DNA of 37,021 nt from a virus. Its lineage: Duplodnaviria > Caudoviricetes. Below, in pieces: positions 1,563 through 37,021 of the stretch. The notes beneath the pieces are model-generated. The model searched no databases, was not told the DNA's origin, and saw nothing but the letters and a program-made list of their open reading frames with translations. The translations under genes were made by a program, and so were the position numbers. Where the stretch lies: positions 1-37,021 of the IMG/VR virus record IMGVR_UViG_3300035182_000650; one strand, given 5' to 3'. Position 1 is the stretch's first letter; each line of letters opens with the position of its first letter.

Positions 1563-2341
1563 TATAAACTCCTAATTTTGTTAACAATTTCATCTCTATA
1601 TTCCGCAGCCATCGCTACCCGTTGCGCCATTTTGTCAATGTCCGCCTGATTGCGGTCAATGCGGACAACGTGCAAACGTGCGCGTGGGTTGTTGGCTACC
1701 GGGTTGTAACTGACCCAGTAGCCGTAATCCTGTTCGGCTGCGGCGATTTGTGTTTGCTGCTGCCAGTAGTAACAGGCACTGGCCTTGAGTAGCGAGTCGT
1801 TGTCCGTGACGGTCAAGATATTACTGAGGTGATTGGCGCGTTTCGGGCTTTTAACGTCAAACGTCACGCCATCAACCGAGCCGATACGCCCGTCTGGCGT
1901 TGCACCGGAATCATTGACCCATGGGATAAACTGCTGACTTTCTCCGATGTGGAAAAGATCGGTATCAAGACGCATAGCAAGATCAGCACATGCACCTGAT
2001 TCGCGCTCATTTCCGCGCTTAATGTCGAGCGTTTGCAACTGTGGCTCGTATTCGTCTTCGCCAAAAAGCAGTTCCATTGCCTTTTCTTCGGCGTAGGTCT
2101 TCGCCCCCGCGCTCAGGGTAAATTCACCAAGACGGGCGCGTTCTGACCGGATGAAATCGTCATAAGCGGCAACCGTGGCAAACACAGTATCAATATACTG
2201 TTTTCCGTTAGTCCAAACTGTGTATCCGACACCCTTCGCGCCTTCGCGGTCGGGTGTCCAGTCGACTTGTCCGTTTGCTGCCATCAGACGGTAAATTCCG
2301 CTTGCGGTGAATTTACCGTCTCTTTCGGGTGATAGGGTCAT
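1562..2341 (-). CDS. YqaJ / lambda-exonuclease-like recombination nuclease
   Basis: RDGKFTASG, GATPDG, DVKSP and YYWQQQTQ motifs. Start placed at ATG 2341 (TGATG overlap); the track start at 2353 is also possible. Confidence 0.85.
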   Translation of the reverse strand: MTLSPERDGKFTASGIYRLMAANGQVDWTPDREGAKGVGYTVWTNGKQYIDTVFATVAAYDDFIRSERARLGEFTLSAGAKTYAEEKAMELLFGEDEYEPQLQTLDIKRGNERESGACADLAMRLDTDLFHIGESQQFIPWVNDSGATPDGRIGSVDGVTFDVKSPKRANHLSNILTVTDNDSLLKASACYYWQQQTQIAAAEQDYGYWVSYNPVANNPRARLHVVRIDRNQADIDKMAQRVAMAAEYRDEIVNKIRSL

Positions 2342-3060
2342 CAAGCAATCCATCCATTGTTTTTTGCAATCTGTTGAAGAATAGGCTTCCAGATCCTCCA
2401 GAATTCAATGGCGCGTTCGCCATCCATTTTTGATATTGCGCTTTCGTCAAAACCAATCCAGTCGGTAATAGTGTGGAACTCGCATCCAATTTTCAGATGC
2501 GTGTTTGTCATGAAAATCATGTAATTACCTGTAGCCTCCGAAGCAGCAACACTAAAAACATCTGCCTCGCTCAGGTCTGCCCCGTCCATGCCTGTCCCTC
2601 TCAGGCTTGCCTCGCTCAGTTCTGCCCCTCTCAGGTCTGCCCTGCTCAGTTCTGCCCCGTTCAGGTTTGCCCCTCTCAGGTTTGCCCCTCTCAGGTTTGC
2701 CCCGCTCAGGTCTGCCCCTCTCAGGTCTGCCCCTCTCAGGTCTGCCCTGCTCAGGTCTGCCCTGCTCAGGTCTGCCCCTCTCAGCTTTGCCCCGATCAGG
2801 TTTGCCCTGCTCAGGTTTGCCCTGCTCAGGTTTGCCTCGTACAGGTTTGCCTCGTACAGGTTTGCCCTGCTCAGGTCTGCCCTGCTTAGGTCTGCCCTTC
2901 TTAGGTCTGCCCTGCTCAGGTCTGCCCTGCTCAGGTCTGCCCTGCTTAGGTCTTTCCCTCTCAGGTCTGCCCCTCTCAGGTCTGCCCCTCTCAGGTCTTC
3001 CCCGTTCAGGTCCGTCACTGTAATACGGTCTTTAATATCGACTTTCATGATGTTCTCCAT
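2341..3060 (-). CDS. pentapeptide-repeat protein with conserved phage C-terminal domain
   Basis: About 29 A(D/N)Lxx repeats followed by the LKIGCEFHTITDW...MDG..A.EFW..WK domain. Confidence 0.9.
   Translation of the reverse strand: MENIMKVDIKDRITVTDLNGEDLRGADLRGADLRGKDLSRADLSRADLSRADLRRADLSRADLSRANLYEANLYEANLSRANLSRANLIGAKLRGADLSRADLSRADLRGADLRGADLSGANLRGANLRGANLNGAELSRADLRGAELSEASLRGTGMDGADLSEADVFSVAASEATGNYMIFMTNTHLKIGCEFHTITDWIGFDESAISKMDGERAIEFWRIWKPILQQIAKNNGWIA
2566..3012. repeat. 15-bp coding tandem repeat (CAGGTYTGCCCYNCT-like) underlying the pentapeptide repeats
   Basis: Period of 15 bp visible directly; it explains the spurious overlapping plus-strand ORFs. Boundaries approximate. 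Confidence 0.9.
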
Positions 3061-10854: not shown

Positions 10855-10888
10855 TGTCCATATTATACCTATAATATAGACAAATCAA
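10855..10888 (-). promoter_or_regulatory. leftward promoter with 28-bp palindromic operator
   Basis: TGTCCATATTATACCTATAATATAGACA (10855-10882); TTGATT and TATAAT/TAATAT boxes on the minus strand. Confidence 0.65.
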
Positions 10889-11208
10889 TACGCATTCACG
10901 GGCAAAAATACACATTTATACGCATTTATACACGTTGTGTATTTTGTAACTTGCTGAAAATAAACTGGAAAATACAGAAAATACGCATATACGCATTTTT
11001 TGGCGAAATCGCTATGGTAAATATAATATGTGTCATGGGCATATTATGACTATGATGCTCTCTCACGTACATGAGTCATAATATAATGTATAATGTGTAT
11101 ATTGTGTATAAAAGATAATAGAATCAGTAACTTACAAAAATACACATTAATACACATTTTTTTTATTACTTGTTAAATCATACAGTTACAGCAATACACA
11201 TTGTGTAT
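10888..11208. repeat. iteron-like array A (ATAC[A/G]CA, direct and inverted), putative replication origin
   Basis: Direct copies at 10888, 10908, 10918, 10928, 10981, 10989, 11140, 11150, 11194; inverted (TGTGTAT) at 10936, 11094, 11103, 11202. IHF-consensus match AATCAGTAACTTA at 11122-11134. AT-rich. Confidence 0.65.
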
Positions 11209-11277
11209 TGGCATGGTTTTTGAAGTTTAATCGTGAAGGTCAGCATAACCCACCTCGGCCATAGTGAGGGCTTTTTT

Positions 11278-11583
11278 GTAGTCACGTAGTCACCTGTAGT
11301 CACTATATAATTTTTAAGCGACTACACGAAAAATCCTTTTAAATCCATATACTTGCCACACTTGTAGTCATGTAGTCACTAGATATAGGTAAAGTATATT
11401 GGTAAAACACATTATGCCTATATACCCATGTGGAAAACGCTACGTACAAAAAAAGTTTGCTCGGTACTAGTGACTACGTGACTACAAAGCATTTTATAAC
11501 CTTTTAAGTGTATGTTTTGAATGTGTTTTTTTCTGTAGTCACTACCGACTACACGGCACTTTAAATAGTGACTACGTGACTAC
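11278..11583. repeat. iteron-like array B (GTAGTCAC octamer, 6 direct and 6 inverted), putative replication origin
   Basis: Direct at 11278, 11286, 11296, 11364, 11372, 11535; inverted at 11318, 11470, 11478, 11545, 11568, 11576 (some with 1-2 mismatches). Arranged as a large imperfect palindrome around an AT-rich centre. Confidence 0.75.
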
Positions 11584-11596
11584 AGTTTTTCCCATG

Positions 11597-11632
11597 AAAA
11601 AACCCGCTGCAAGCTAAGCCTGTAGAGGGTTT
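11597..11632 (-). terminator. intrinsic terminator downstream of the CRISPR mini-array
   Basis: Minus strand AAACCCTCTACAGGCTTAGCTTGCAGCGGGTTTTTT: imperfect hairpin with a U tail. Confidence 0.6.
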
Positions 11633-11644
11633 CAGCGTAAAGGC

Positions 11645-11746
11645 ATTGTAGTATTCCGGGGGGAGAGTGGGCGCTACAACATGCTGTACTCACTGAGATA
11701 AAAGCCGTACATTGTAGTATTCCGGGGGGAGAGTGGGAGCTACAAC
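11645..11746 (-). CRISPR. type II-C-like CRISPR mini-array (2 x 36-bp repeats, 1 x 30-bp spacer)
   Basis: Repeats 11645-11680 and 11711-11746 differ at one base. Minus-strand repeat GTTGTAGCTCCCACTCTCCCCCCGGAATACTACAAT shares its length, 5' GTTGTAGCTCCC and 3' CTACAAT with the Neisseria meningitidis II-C repeat. Spacer 11681-11710. Confidence 0.85.
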
Positions 11747-11749
11747 TGG

Positions 11750-12238
11750 ATGGGACCGGTGAAACTAATCTACCTAGACATAGACGGCGTGCTCTGCACT
11801 CACCGCGCTTGTGCTGCTATTGGCGAATCCACGGGTAGTATGGACTACCTTGATCCGATTGCCTGCAAGCTGGTGGAGCGTCTAATCACTGACTTTGAAG
11901 CAAAAGTTGTGATTAGCAGTACATGGCGGTTAACCCGCAGCAAGCGCGAAATGTATCAGCTATTCCGTTGTGCAGGGCATCGCATCATTGCCGAATCACT
12001 GCATGAGCGTTGGGCAACACCGACAATCAAAAGACCCGACCTGATGCGCGGTCACGAAATCGAACTTTCCCTGTCTGAAATCGAAAACCACGAACACGTA
12101 ACATCCTATGTAATTCTTGACGACGATAGCGACATGCTGGGCTACCAACAGCCGTTTTTTGTGCAGACGGATACCTATGATGGGCTTGGCTTCATGGGAT
12201 TTGAGCGTGCTAGGCGGATTTTAGGTGGTGAGTCTTGA
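11750..12238 (+). CDS. HAD-superfamily phosphatase (HAD_SAK_2-like, Swiss-army-knife RNA-repair type)
   Basis: IYLDIDGVL (motif I), VVISSTWR, RGHEI, YVILDDDSDM, FVQTD..DGL. Start may be GTG at 11759. Confidence 0.85.
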   Translation: MGPVKLIYLDIDGVLCTHRACAAIGESTGSMDYLDPIACKLVERLITDFEAKVVISSTWRLTRSKREMYQLFRCAGHRIIAESLHERWATPTIKRPDLMRGHEIELSLSEIENHEHVTSYVILDDDSDMLGYQQPFFVQTDTYDGLGFMGFERARRILGGES

Positions 12239-13559: not shown

Positions 13560-13636
13560 CGCAGGGTAGAGCAATCAGGCAGCTCGTCAGGCTCATAACC
13601 TGAAGGTTGAGGGTTCAAATCCCGCCCCTGCTACCA
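13560..13636 (+). tRNA. tRNA-Met(CAT), initiator (fMet) type
   Basis: Cloverleaf closely following E. coli tRNA-fMet; unpaired C1:U72, anticodon loop CTCATAA, TTCAAAT T-loop, encoded CCA. Confidence 0.93.
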
Positions 13637-32891: not shown

Positions 32892-33980
32892 ATGGATAAT
32901 GCAATTATTGTTGGTACATCCGCTTGTGCTGCGTCAAATCCAAACAATTGGCTAACTCCCCCGGTCATCACTGATACCACTATGAATGGTCTAACAGATG
33001 CTTGCGGCATGTTTTGCAACGTGCTTGACATCGGGGATCGTAATTATTTTAGTTGTGTAGCGTCTGGTAGTTATACTGTTAGTGTGTACACGTCAGTGGG
33101 CGGCATACTAATCAGTAGTCAAAATATTGCATCAAATGTGCAATGCAACTGGCAAATTGATTGGGCATCTTGTACGCACAATATTGATGCTTATACACGT
33201 CAGGCATATGTAGAGATTACTCCACAAGCCGGACAATCTCTTACATCTCTGCTGTTTTCCACTAATAACCCAGCAGAAACCAATGCAAATAGCTCAGTAT
33301 ATCTTGTTGGTTTGTTTTATAGACTACCTTCAATGACCAATGCGGCAAATATGAACAGTGCTAATTATGCATTGCAGTCAGTTACACACGGCAATTACCC
33401 TGCAATGATCAATGCGATAAATATGCACAATGCTAATTATGCATTGCAGTCAGTTACACACGGCAATTACCCTTCAATGACCAATGCGACAAATATGCAC
33501 AATGCTAATTATGCATTGCAGTCAGTTACACACGGCAATTACCCTGCAATGACTAATGCGACAGCAATGCACTATGCTAATTATGCATTTCTGTCAGTTA
33601 CACACGGCAATTACCCTGCAATGACCAATGCGACAAATATGCACTATGCTAATTTTGCATTGCAGTCATGCTATTTTGGTGGGTTGTCTGCGCTGACCAA
33701 TGCAACAGGTATGTTCGGCACGACAACCGAAGCTACTTGCTGTAGATCGCTGCGAAAGTTGATCACAAATGGTTTGGGGACAGCTTTCCCAAATGCAACA
33801 ACCTTCGTTTTGCGATACACCGCAATTCAAGAGACTGAAGCGTTGGCATGGGTGACGAGCTTAGGTACTAGCGCAAATACAATTACTTTTGATTTGCGTA
33901 ACAATCCATTTAGTACGTCTACTTTAGTAGCACCTGCTATTTTGGCTGATTTTCCCAACTCAACAGTAACCCTAGTTTAA
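32892..33980 (+). CDS. repeat (solenoid, BspA/DUF285-like) protein, putative receptor-binding or adhesin
   Basis: About 4.75 copies of a 24-aa repeat P(S/A)MTNATNMHxANYALQSVTHGNY, followed by an LRR-like cap (FDLRNNP). Confidence 0.65.
   Translation: MDNAIIVGTSACAASNPNNWLTPPVITDTTMNGLTDACGMFCNVLDIGDRNYFSCVASGSYTVSVYTSVGGILISSQNIASNVQCNWQIDWASCTHNIDAYTRQAYVEITPQAGQSLTSLLFSTNNPAETNANSSVYLVGLFYRLPSMTNAANMNSANYALQSVTHGNYPAMINAINMHNANYALQSVTHGNYPSMTNATNMHNANYALQSVTHGNYPAMTNATAMHYANYAFLSVTHGNYPAMTNATNMHYANFALQSCYFGGLSALTNATGMFGTTTEATCCRSLRKLITNGLGTAFPNATTFVLRYTAIQETEALAWVTSLGTSANTITFDLRNNPFSTSTLVAPAILADFPNSTVTLV
33327..33668. repeat. 72-bp coding tandem repeat (~4.75 copies)
   Basis: GTTACACACGGCAATTACCC recurs at 33381, 33453, 33525, 33597. 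Confidence 0.9.
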
Positions 33981-34400: not shown

Positions 34401-34462
34401 GGCTTAAACTCCTGTGCATAATTCCGTGCTCGTCCATTATACATCATCCTTTTGCAATCAGG

Positions 34463-34665
34463 TTGACATCCTCCCCGCCCTAAAGGACGGGGATTCCTCC
34501 TGCGAGACGGCTATGCCCAGCCGCGAGAATGTTGCGTGCTGCATTGACATCTCTGTCGTGCAGCGTGCCACAGTCGGCACACATCCATTCCCTTATTCCA
34601 AGCCCTGCCCTACCTTTCGGACTGTCGACGGAAATGCTCCCGCAACACGAACAAGCTTGGGTACT
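34463..34665 (-). mobile_element. tnpB: IS200/IS605-family remnant: tnpB 3' end plus right end
   Basis: STQACSCCG...REWMCADCGTLHDRDVNAARNIL is the TnpB Zn finger and RuvC-III. It is followed by the right-end hairpin CCCCGTCCTTTAGGGCGGGG and terminal GGATGTCAA. The 5' part of tnpB and the left end are missing. Confidence 0.88.
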
Positions 34666-34681
34666 GATGTGCATTTTCTTG

Positions 34682-35928: not shown

Positions 35929-36484
35929 TGGAACGCTTCTTTTGAAGTGGAACGGATGAAGCGTTCCATCCGTTCCGTTCCATCCGTTCCGTTCCATCCG
36001 TTCCGTTCCGTTCCATCCGTTCCATCCGTTCCATCCGTTCCATCCGTTCCGTTCCATCCGTTCCATCCGTTCCGTTCCGTTCCGTTCCATCCGTTCCGTT
36101 TAATCCGTTCCATCCGTTCCGTTCTGTTCCTTGCCACGGTATCCGTTCCGCTTGGCGAGCTTCCAGTAATGTGCTTTGTCTTTTGTGCAGCAGAACCGTT
36201 GGTTGGAACGCTTCTTCAGGAACGGCACGGTACACACTGGGCAGAACACTTCTCTACCTGTTTCAAGTAGTTCATTTTCTTCAAAAACCTTGCGCATTTT
36301 CTCAAAGTTTTCAGCGTTATTTTCGATGCTTGCGCCCTCTTCCTTGGTGTCTGGAACGCTTCCGCCCTTCTCGGTGGAACGGGTTGGAACGCTATGGAAC
36401 GCTTCTATTTCACCCGTTCCAACCCGTTCCATAGCGTTCCGTTCCGTTCCGTTTGGAACGCTTCCATCCGTTCCATCCGTTCCA
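35929..36484. repeat. GGAACG-based repeat field: dense CCGTT/CCAT array (35960-36130) plus dispersed TGGAACGCTTC copies
   Basis: TGGAACGCTTC at 35929, 36204, 36352, 36395, 36454, inverted at 35958; many CGTTCC units. Confidence 0.85.
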
Positions 36485-37021
36485 TATTGTTGCATTGCGT
36501 CATTTTTGCTCACTGGTAAGGGTAGCGAATAGTGTTCCTCAGCCGTTCCCAACGCGGGGTTATGCAGGCCAGTTGCACCCTGTTTCTGGTTGACCGGCAC
36601 TGATGGAGTAGGGGTCTTTGCTATCAGCTTGTCCGTGATCTTGTCCGATACCTTGGCAAGGTCTTTGTCGTCCAGTTCCGCCGGGGCAGGGATGCGTGCA
36701 TAAGCATCAAATACCGCCGCCTGAATCGCTTCCTGAGACGTTGCACCGCTGGCCTTCACATCGGCATAGATTCTCTGGATGGTTTCAACCACGGGCATTT
36801 TAGGAAGCGGGGTAGGGGTGTTAATACCTGCCAGTTCCATTACATGCGCCAATTGTTCCGGTGATTGTTTAAACCCTTCGGATTTTTTCAATAAGGCCGC
36901 ATCCAGTTTATTGCCGACGTTACGCAAAACATCAGAGGTGTCTGCTAATACCTGTTTGTTTGCATAGTCTGCCCGCATCATTTCAGTTGCGATTAATTCA
37001 GGTGCAGCTTTTAAACCTTCC
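36100..37021 (-). CDS. hypothetical protein, C-terminal part, with GT(D/E)/NGTER repeats and a terminal Cys-rich Zn-finger-like motif (start lies beyond the right edge)
   Basis: Frame open from the right edge to TAA at 36100; ends with FCPVCTVPFLKKRSNQRFCCTKDK. Confidence 0.75.
   Translation of the reverse strand, partial: EGLKAAPELIATEMMRADYANKQVLADTSDVLRNVGNKLDAALLKKSEGFKQSPEQLAHVMELAGINTPTPLPKMPVVETIQRIYADVKASGATSQEAIQAAVFDAYARIPAPAELDDKDLAKVSDKITDKLIAKTPTPSVPVNQKQGATGLHNPALGTAEEHYSLPLPVSKNDAMQQYGTDGTDGSVPNGTERNAMERVGTGEIEAFHSVPTRSTEKGGSVPDTKEEGASIENNAENFEKMRKVFEENELLETGREVFCPVCTVPFLKKRSNQRFCCTKDKAHYWKLAKRNGYRGKEQNGTDGTD

Follow-up and report, generated by a model that had tools for sequence, protein, structure and literature searches.

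The analysed stretch of DNA (the window, 37,021 nt) represents a tailed phage with a contractile tail, i.e., a 37-kb myovirus, in which the replication genes are oriented leftward and the genes for lysis, packaging, head and tail rightward. The record is classed as linear and was rated 83% complete by the classifying tool, such that further phage DNA could be missing. A minus-strand frame without a stop for 413 codons spans the junction between the end and the start of the record, which suggests closure of the phage genome; given two open ends, such a frame is expected by chance in about 1 of 3 cases. The gap between the leftward replication module and the rightward modules contains, from left to right: (i) ten GTAGTCAY motifs in both orientations (11278..11585), (ii) the captured leader-side (3') end of a host type II-C CRISPR array (11586..11644, minus strand), (iii) two CRISPR repeats flanking a single spacer, and (iv) a gene for a HAD_SAK_2 phosphatase-like protein (11750..12238, plus strand; Pfam PF18143, E 1e-20). 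All 10 genome-wide GTAGTCAY matches fall within 11278-11583, at about 2.3 expected genome-wide. The motif cluster, which ends where the captured segment starts, likely represents replication-origin iterons and is presumably comparable to the P4 origin. To its left, an AT-rich stretch (10888-11210) carries recurring AATACACA and ATACGCAT motifs. The HAD_SAK_2 gene starts 4 nt from repeat 1 and is also present on a sister phage contig (L003); searched with the phage gene as query, 107 genomes of the inferred host order (see below) were devoid of it.

The two repeats are 36 nt each and lie on the minus strand at 11711..11746 (repeat 1, distal) and 11645..11680 (repeat 2, leader-side, from which the predicted crRNA would take its 3' handle), separated by a 30-nt spacer (11681..11710, minus strand). 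Thus, coordinates and sequence agree with the first-pass annotation, which had described two 36-bp repeats with one mismatch around a 30-bp spacer. The single difference resides at position 9 (crRNA sense), where repeat 1 has T and repeat 2 has G; about 1e-11 such repeat pairs are expected by chance in 37 kb. Repeat 1 ends with a TACAAT hexamer resembling a -10 box and, as noted at first pass, lacks the TGn extension, since positions 28-29 read TA rather than TG. Rfam yielded only a sub-threshold CRISPR-DR34 match (25.7 bits versus a cut-off of 35). The hairpin with U run reported downstream on the minus strand is likewise borne out (about 11597-11633; 55-nt fold of -18.2 kcal/mol, z -2.2, with 8 of 200 shuffles as good), even if a simple terminator scan of the window did not list it among its predictions. 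Rather than being a terminator of the phage mini-array, as originally proposed, this hairpin belongs to the host's own array end, and the feature accordingly begins at 11586, where the host-derived segment starts, and not at 11597. The window itself contains neither cas9, cas2 nor a tyrosine integrase gene (six-frame search), no tracrRNA (model search) and no second copy of the spacer beyond 18/30 identity, in line with the initial view that cas genes, an anti-repeat and a full protospacer are lacking. Furthermore, no serine recombinase was found among the phage ORFs scanned and no named anti-CRISPR among the ORFs near the array. A natural single guide formed by a repeat hairpin and the downstream hairpin was rejected: with a model built from 35 tracrRNAs of the repeat family (see below), true tracrRNAs reach 69-71 bits, while the best score in the window was 17 bits, on the repeat.

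The family consensus of the repeat was obtained from a match on an Acidovorax plasmid beside cas2 and cas1, together with a loose viral scan. Scanning genomes with it revealed 121 loci (L037 and L095 being one contig), most of them in Beta- and Gammaproteobacteria and spread over 18 of the 64 parts of the collection; the genome search pattern left positions 19 and 29 free and fixed position 9. At one of these loci (L035), the neighbouring genes encode Cas9 (752 bits), Cas1_NMENI and Cas2, all above the model cut-offs, with no gene intervening before the array begins next to cas2. RuvC and HNH motifs are conserved in 29 full-length Cas9 proteins of the family, the C-terminus of which is nearest to Nme1Cas9 in PDB, and 36 family loci share the same anti-repeat core, as detected with a pattern requiring most of that core. 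Among the 95 family loci with enough sequence, the cas2-end motif follows the last repeat in 70, and in 69 of them cas2 ends 60-65 nt past the last repeat, usually with a hairpin in between. The linkage with cas9-cas1-cas2, the leader homology and the combination of a 36-nt repeat with a 30-nt spacer support the type II-C assignment and the orientation made at first pass. Such sizes also raise type VI-B, which the cas9 linkage of the repeat family rejects. A Neisseria-type source, in contrast, was not upheld, as the Neisseria repeat agrees with that of the phage at only 27 of 36 positions and the closest family members occur in relatives of Thiothrix. The TG extension is found in only 20 of 90 family loci (70 lack it) and hence is not family-defining, but the repeats of the nearest hosts carry it. 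Several host loci are organized differently: in two host MAGs a repeat runs into an anti-repeat or the 3' part of a tracrRNA (L044:24-125 and, past the last repeat, L090), an arrangement like a natural single guide; the array of the Thiothrix relative G315 (L199) is interrupted by an IS982-type element; and in the relative G287 (L202), cas9 leads straight into the array without cas1, cas2 or leader.

The Candidatus Thiothrix moscowensis locus (L096) derives from genome G004; in the order to which G004 belongs, and which we take to be Thiotrichales, 5 of 107 genomes gave matches to the cassette. Repeat 1 is identical at 34 of 36 positions to the repeat of genomes G315, G295 and G287 (differences C19 and A29), and the repeat match to Cas9-associated families that had been called for is thereby provided by II-C loci; repeat 2 shares 33 of 36 positions with the nearest host repeat (differences G9, C19 and A29). 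Leader plus repeat 2 match G315 and G295 at 86 and G305 at 85 of 95 positions, and in the hairpin core 42 of 43 nt agree with the segment between cas2 and the array in G315, G295 and G305. The phage region occurs in four sequencing runs (X1-X4; four studies, sediment and microbial mat), X1 being a possible source of the window. In X2, X3 and X4 (X1 excepted), the phage sequence is joined at 11586 by a contig whose end encodes a G315-like Cas2 C-terminus; the junction lies five bases past the cas2 stop, and therefore the phage retains 59 of the ~64 nt which separate cas2 from the last repeat in the host. Judged from these identities, leader and repeats originate from the II-C array of Thiothrix-related bacteria. 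Since neither 1076 nor, in a second set, 51 host spacers convincingly match the phage, it is solely the homology of leader and repeats that points to a Thiothrix-related phage host. Halothiobacillus was rejected as host: its repeat agrees at 33/36, 1 of 54 genomes in the order was positive, the capsid protein gave no match, and the leader match is weaker than that of the Thiothrix relatives. Likewise, no leader was found in 151 sampled genomes of the order of G002. Site-specific integration into the array was discarded for want of a tyrosine integrase in the phage. A tRNA-Met(CAT) gene ahead of the terminase genes (13560-13636, plus strand) is 86% identical to genomes of the inferred host order; one such comparison scored two candidates per genome, so that its misses mean little. 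In one X2 record and at a loose end of X1 (L035:9031), leader-side repeats are followed by at least 159 nt without a recognised second repeat; these samples may thus also contain host loci with one repeat.

Both phage repeats carry C19 and A29. Among 817 host repeat copies (90 loci), C19 occurs once and A29 never; G29 is present in 813, and A19 is the host state. G29 is likewise found in the allele linked to cas2 in X2 and X4. Most simply, the two repeats would descend from one drifted repeat duplicated upon entry of the spacer; because both share C19 and A29, the spacer was likely added after the drift. This suggests acquisition after capture, possibly on the phage, with G9 probably being a later change in the leader-side copy. 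The same C19/A29 pattern would arise from gene conversion between the repeats, or if the array came from a host outside the sample that has variant repeats. II-C arrays are described to gain spacers through the last repeat (PMC12080349), and leader plus one repeat to suffice for acquisition in Neisseria (PMC12477760). In X3, depths differ along the region (phage left arm 14x, cas2-ended contig 31x, array piece 33x, right arm 47x to ~12428) and no other allele is listed, whereas both phage arms are equally deep in X1, X2 and X4. This hints at the phage-type array together with the HAD gene also residing behind a cas2 end in X3, bearing in mind that contig depth is not copy number and that records may have been filtered. 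The unequal arm depths of X3 are not what simple integration of the entire phage would give. One may tentatively speculate, although we consider it unlikely, that the phage carries a working acquisition site into which host Cas1-Cas2-Cas9 write spacers, with the 95 nt of homology allowing the cassette to return by recombination to a site behind the host cas2, as hinted at by X3, such that phage and host trade array ends. If true, a cas-less phage would possess its own adaptive memory against rivals.

Outside the phage, the spacer has a perfect protospacer (30/30, no differences) in all four runs, on separate contigs at 29-52x; the chance of an exact protospacer is about 4e-9 per run. Its flanks in X1-X4 correspond neither to the repeat nor to the window, and the 3' flank (crRNA sense) reads CAAGCAAC, with C at PAM position 5, while the copy flanked by repeats in the phage array has T there. 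The match outside the phage that the first-pass annotation had asked for was thus obtained in X1-X4, with C5 in its flank, directly supporting its suggestion that another element is cut. The target site is likely coding, one frame being open by eye across the 91 nt seen. Aspartate at the position of Nme1 H1024 is reported to go with a C5 PAM (PMC9433092). It is present in the Cas9 of L035 and of G287 and in 9 of 29 family Cas9 proteins; G315 and G295 have serine (S) instead. A search with 59 spacers of the relatives yielded two G315 spacers that each match, at 28/30, a prophage-like contig of genome G297, with CC at PAM positions 5-6 in both cases; for one of them, a further 25/30 match has an identical flank, and a separate 24/30 match has T5. 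Measured against these G315 protospacers, C5 of the phage target fits, and A6 may not (CA versus CC). All four runs also contain Cas9-like contigs (8-98x) and multi-spacer arrays of the repeat family, as judged by comparison with L035.

Beyond these runs, an exact 18-mer and a codon-degenerate pattern retrieved nothing from IMG/VR but the record of the phage itself, JGI metagenomes gave no match, and phage and plasmid collections only chance-level matches (E 0.2 or worse). The spacer was absent from five genomes and, at three mismatches, from 107 genomes of the inferred host order; a genome search with the codon-degenerate pattern gave one match, which was unrelated. By these searches, a conserved host gene is excluded as the target. 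The target could still be strain-specific chromosomal DNA, such as an insertion sequence, island or prophage, on which the phage would turn Cas9 against its host. In X1-X3, the target contigs end ~660-690 nt to either side of the site, a break pattern expected of a multi-copy element; in 4/4 runs they are deeper than the phage left arm, and IMG/VR has no match. However, the 107 genomes of the order lack the target, and the X3 depths weakly suggest that the same spacer is also located behind a cas2 end, a position in which self-targeting of the chromosome would kill the cell. We consider this host-directed use very improbable. Repression of a host gene by partial pairing, another early proposal, did not hold, since the best PAM-proximal run in five related cas loci was 8 nt, by which a regulatory crlRNA was likewise rejected.

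Dependence on host Cas9 and tracrRNA, as foreseen at first pass, is supported by membership of the repeat in a Cas9-linked family and by the absence of both components from the phage. Predicted pairing of the phage repeat with the G315 anti-repeat amounts to -29.4 kcal/mol for the 24-nt duplex (host repeat, -33.8) and to -40.7 kcal/mol for the 36-nt repeat-tracrRNA duplex (host, -51.8). In this prediction, the eight-pair lower stem is kept; two pairs of the upper stem are lost through C19 and A29, and a G-U pair is gained through G9. Hence, the proposed pairing with the tracrRNA of matching II-C loci is predicted to be retained where the repeat faces Cas9. Nme-type guides tolerate a shortened upper stem. 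TACAAT is conserved in the phage repeat, but the TG of the Thiothrix-type repeat was removed by A29, and upstream of the array only weak candidates for a minus-strand promoter, and no strong one, were found. Transcription of the array is thus doubtful from its sequence, expression being the weak link.

With moderate confidence, we regard a guide for host Cas9 directed against a rival element as the best reading of the array. In this scenario, leader and one repeat of a host II-C array would have been captured by recombination, the captured repeat would have drifted (C19, A29), and host Cas1-Cas2-Cas9 would have inserted a spacer next to the captured leader. The array would then be transcribed to yield one crRNA, which would combine with host tracrRNA to load host Cas9, and the loaded Cas9 would cut a likely rival mobile element in the co-infected cell. 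In favour are the identities of the repeat (34/36) and of leader plus repeat 2 (86/95) to II-C loci of Thiothrix relatives, the exact protospacer with C5 as in both G315 protospacers (T5 in the phage's own copy), the intact predicted lower stem and the co-occurrence of family Cas9-like contigs in 4/4 runs. Against it stand the weakened tracrRNA pairing, the lost TG and the missing strong promoter, CA in place of CC at the target, S instead of the C5-predicting aspartate in the G315 and G295 Cas9, and the persistence of the unmutated target at 29-52x in the same samples.

A further counterpoint is that the array was seen in no relative: IMG/VR contains one identical record and one sister contig of 94-96% identity, which starts at 11940 beyond the array, positions 11746-11933 are uncovered in X4 (a hole that proves nothing), and none of 19 distant relatives (27-38% identity in the primase-helicase) has the array within the fetched flanks. 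This restricted occurrence, along with the weakening of tracrRNA pairing and repeat promoter by the shared changes, would also be compatible with an inert or decaying hitch-hiker, i.e., host array DNA acquired beside the origin through recombination and kept only as a terminator or for its GGGAG in repeat 1, which is positioned 11 nt ahead of the ATG at 11750 and could be the ribosome-binding site of the HAD_SAK_2 gene. Such a remnant appears unlikely in view of a spacer that matches a living target at all 30 positions next to a fitting PAM base, of a Cas9-facing lower stem that is unchanged or gained one G-U pair, and of the shared changes, which would imply repeat duplication after the drift, as spacer acquisition yields.

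Alternatively, the RNA may act as a decoy, titrating Cas9/tracrRNA or loading guide-free Cas9 and thereby damping acquisition against the phage, the spacer being incidental. For N. meningitidis, a crRNA-tracrRNA pair is described to suppress acquisition driven by guide-free Cas9 (PMC12477760), and Cas9-sequestering phage RNAs are reported (10.64898/2026.06.01.729453; 10.64898/2026.06.03.729762). A decoy is nevertheless improbable for the present array, which has no fused tracrRNA scaffold, no solitary repeat, a weakened promoter and no named anti-CRISPR nearby, and for which an exact target would be superfluous.

As a guide for host Cas9, the array is most readily compared with the virus-borne mini-arrays of SPV1/SPV2 (Medvedeva et al. 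2019, PMC6858448; review PMC11656645). It is small, lacks cas genes, has repeats matching the nearest genomes at 34/36 and 33/36 (the actual host not being among these) and a perfect external protospacer without self target. As described for SPV1/SPV2, it is intergenic with one spacer and host-type repeats, has retained a host leader, and its target occurs in the same community. In contrast to them, it is of bacterial type II-C, requires host tracrRNA, has its leader 3' of the array and carries repeats close but not identical to those of the nearest host; a related virus as target is described for SPV1/SPV2. Mini-arrays on phages are already known, and those of an earlier survey (Faure et al. 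2019) are without leaders according to PMC6858448; the retained leader is thus a new feature among them, although a leader 3' of a II-C array may have escaped notice in that survey.

With the N. meningitidis II-C array as described in PMC12477760 and PMC12080349, the phage array shares repeat and spacer lengths, acquisition at the last repeat and the layout of a repeat-embedded promoter; it differs in repeat sequence (27/36), in the lacking extended -10 TG and in having neither cas genes nor tracrRNA in cis. Phage RNAs aimed at host Cas9 also include viral single-guide RNAs and rAcrIIA1 (10.64898/2026.06.01.729453; 10.64898/2026.06.03.729762), but these are described as guide-tracrRNA fusions, mostly beside Acrs and often targeting the cas9 promoter, whereas the phage array lacks both a scaffold and a promoter match and has its full-length target outside the phage; a viral single-guide RNA was rejected on the tracrRNA model scores given above. 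Racr solitary repeats and crlRNA/Cracr (PMC10651486; PMC10120712, 10.1101/2024.10.29.618823) also represent host-derived repeats on cas-less phages; two near-intact repeats and a full 30-nt spacer with a perfect target set the present array apart, and a Racr was rejected. According to PMC11656645, the use of mini-arrays between viruses has been validated for one archaeal pair, and the literature found contained no test of a Cas9 mini-array borrowing host tracrRNA, though paper supplements may list II-C mini-arrays. The phage case supplies the guide, the exact natural target with its flank and the sequences of related host Cas9, tracrRNA, Cas1 and Cas2, and the retained II-C leader bears on whether spacers of phage mini-arrays originate from recombination or true acquisition.

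The family repeat was also detected on five other viral contigs, two with one-spacer arrays and three with single repeats. The one-spacer arrays (L150:2997-3098 and L152) reside without leader on phage contigs, where they apparently replace the middle of a small gene in the lysis region; a search for the target of the L150 mini-array did not find it. Single II-C repeats are present on viral contigs L151, L153, L155, L007, L009, L010, L013-L015, L018, L019, L023 and L024. In the Neisseria-type group of these, the repeat is followed by a hairpin and a T run, making them candidate Cas9 single-repeat guides or decoys.

Elsewhere in the phage genome, the replication module encodes a pentapeptide-repeat protein (2341-3060, minus strand), for which Qnr/MfpA and other pentapeptide models remained below cut-off and one generic model was above it. 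About six 72-nt repeats (33255-33713) are located within an unannotated gene for a 362-aa protein after the tail fibre. A C-terminal zinc-finger fragment resembling TnpB (34454-34674, minus strand), ending in a sub-threshold Rfam HgcC match, is presumably an IS200/IS605 remnant. Finally, a dense, irregular CGTTC/CATC array with an inverted copy (35934-36495) overlaps the end of an unannotated gene which may cross the contig junction.
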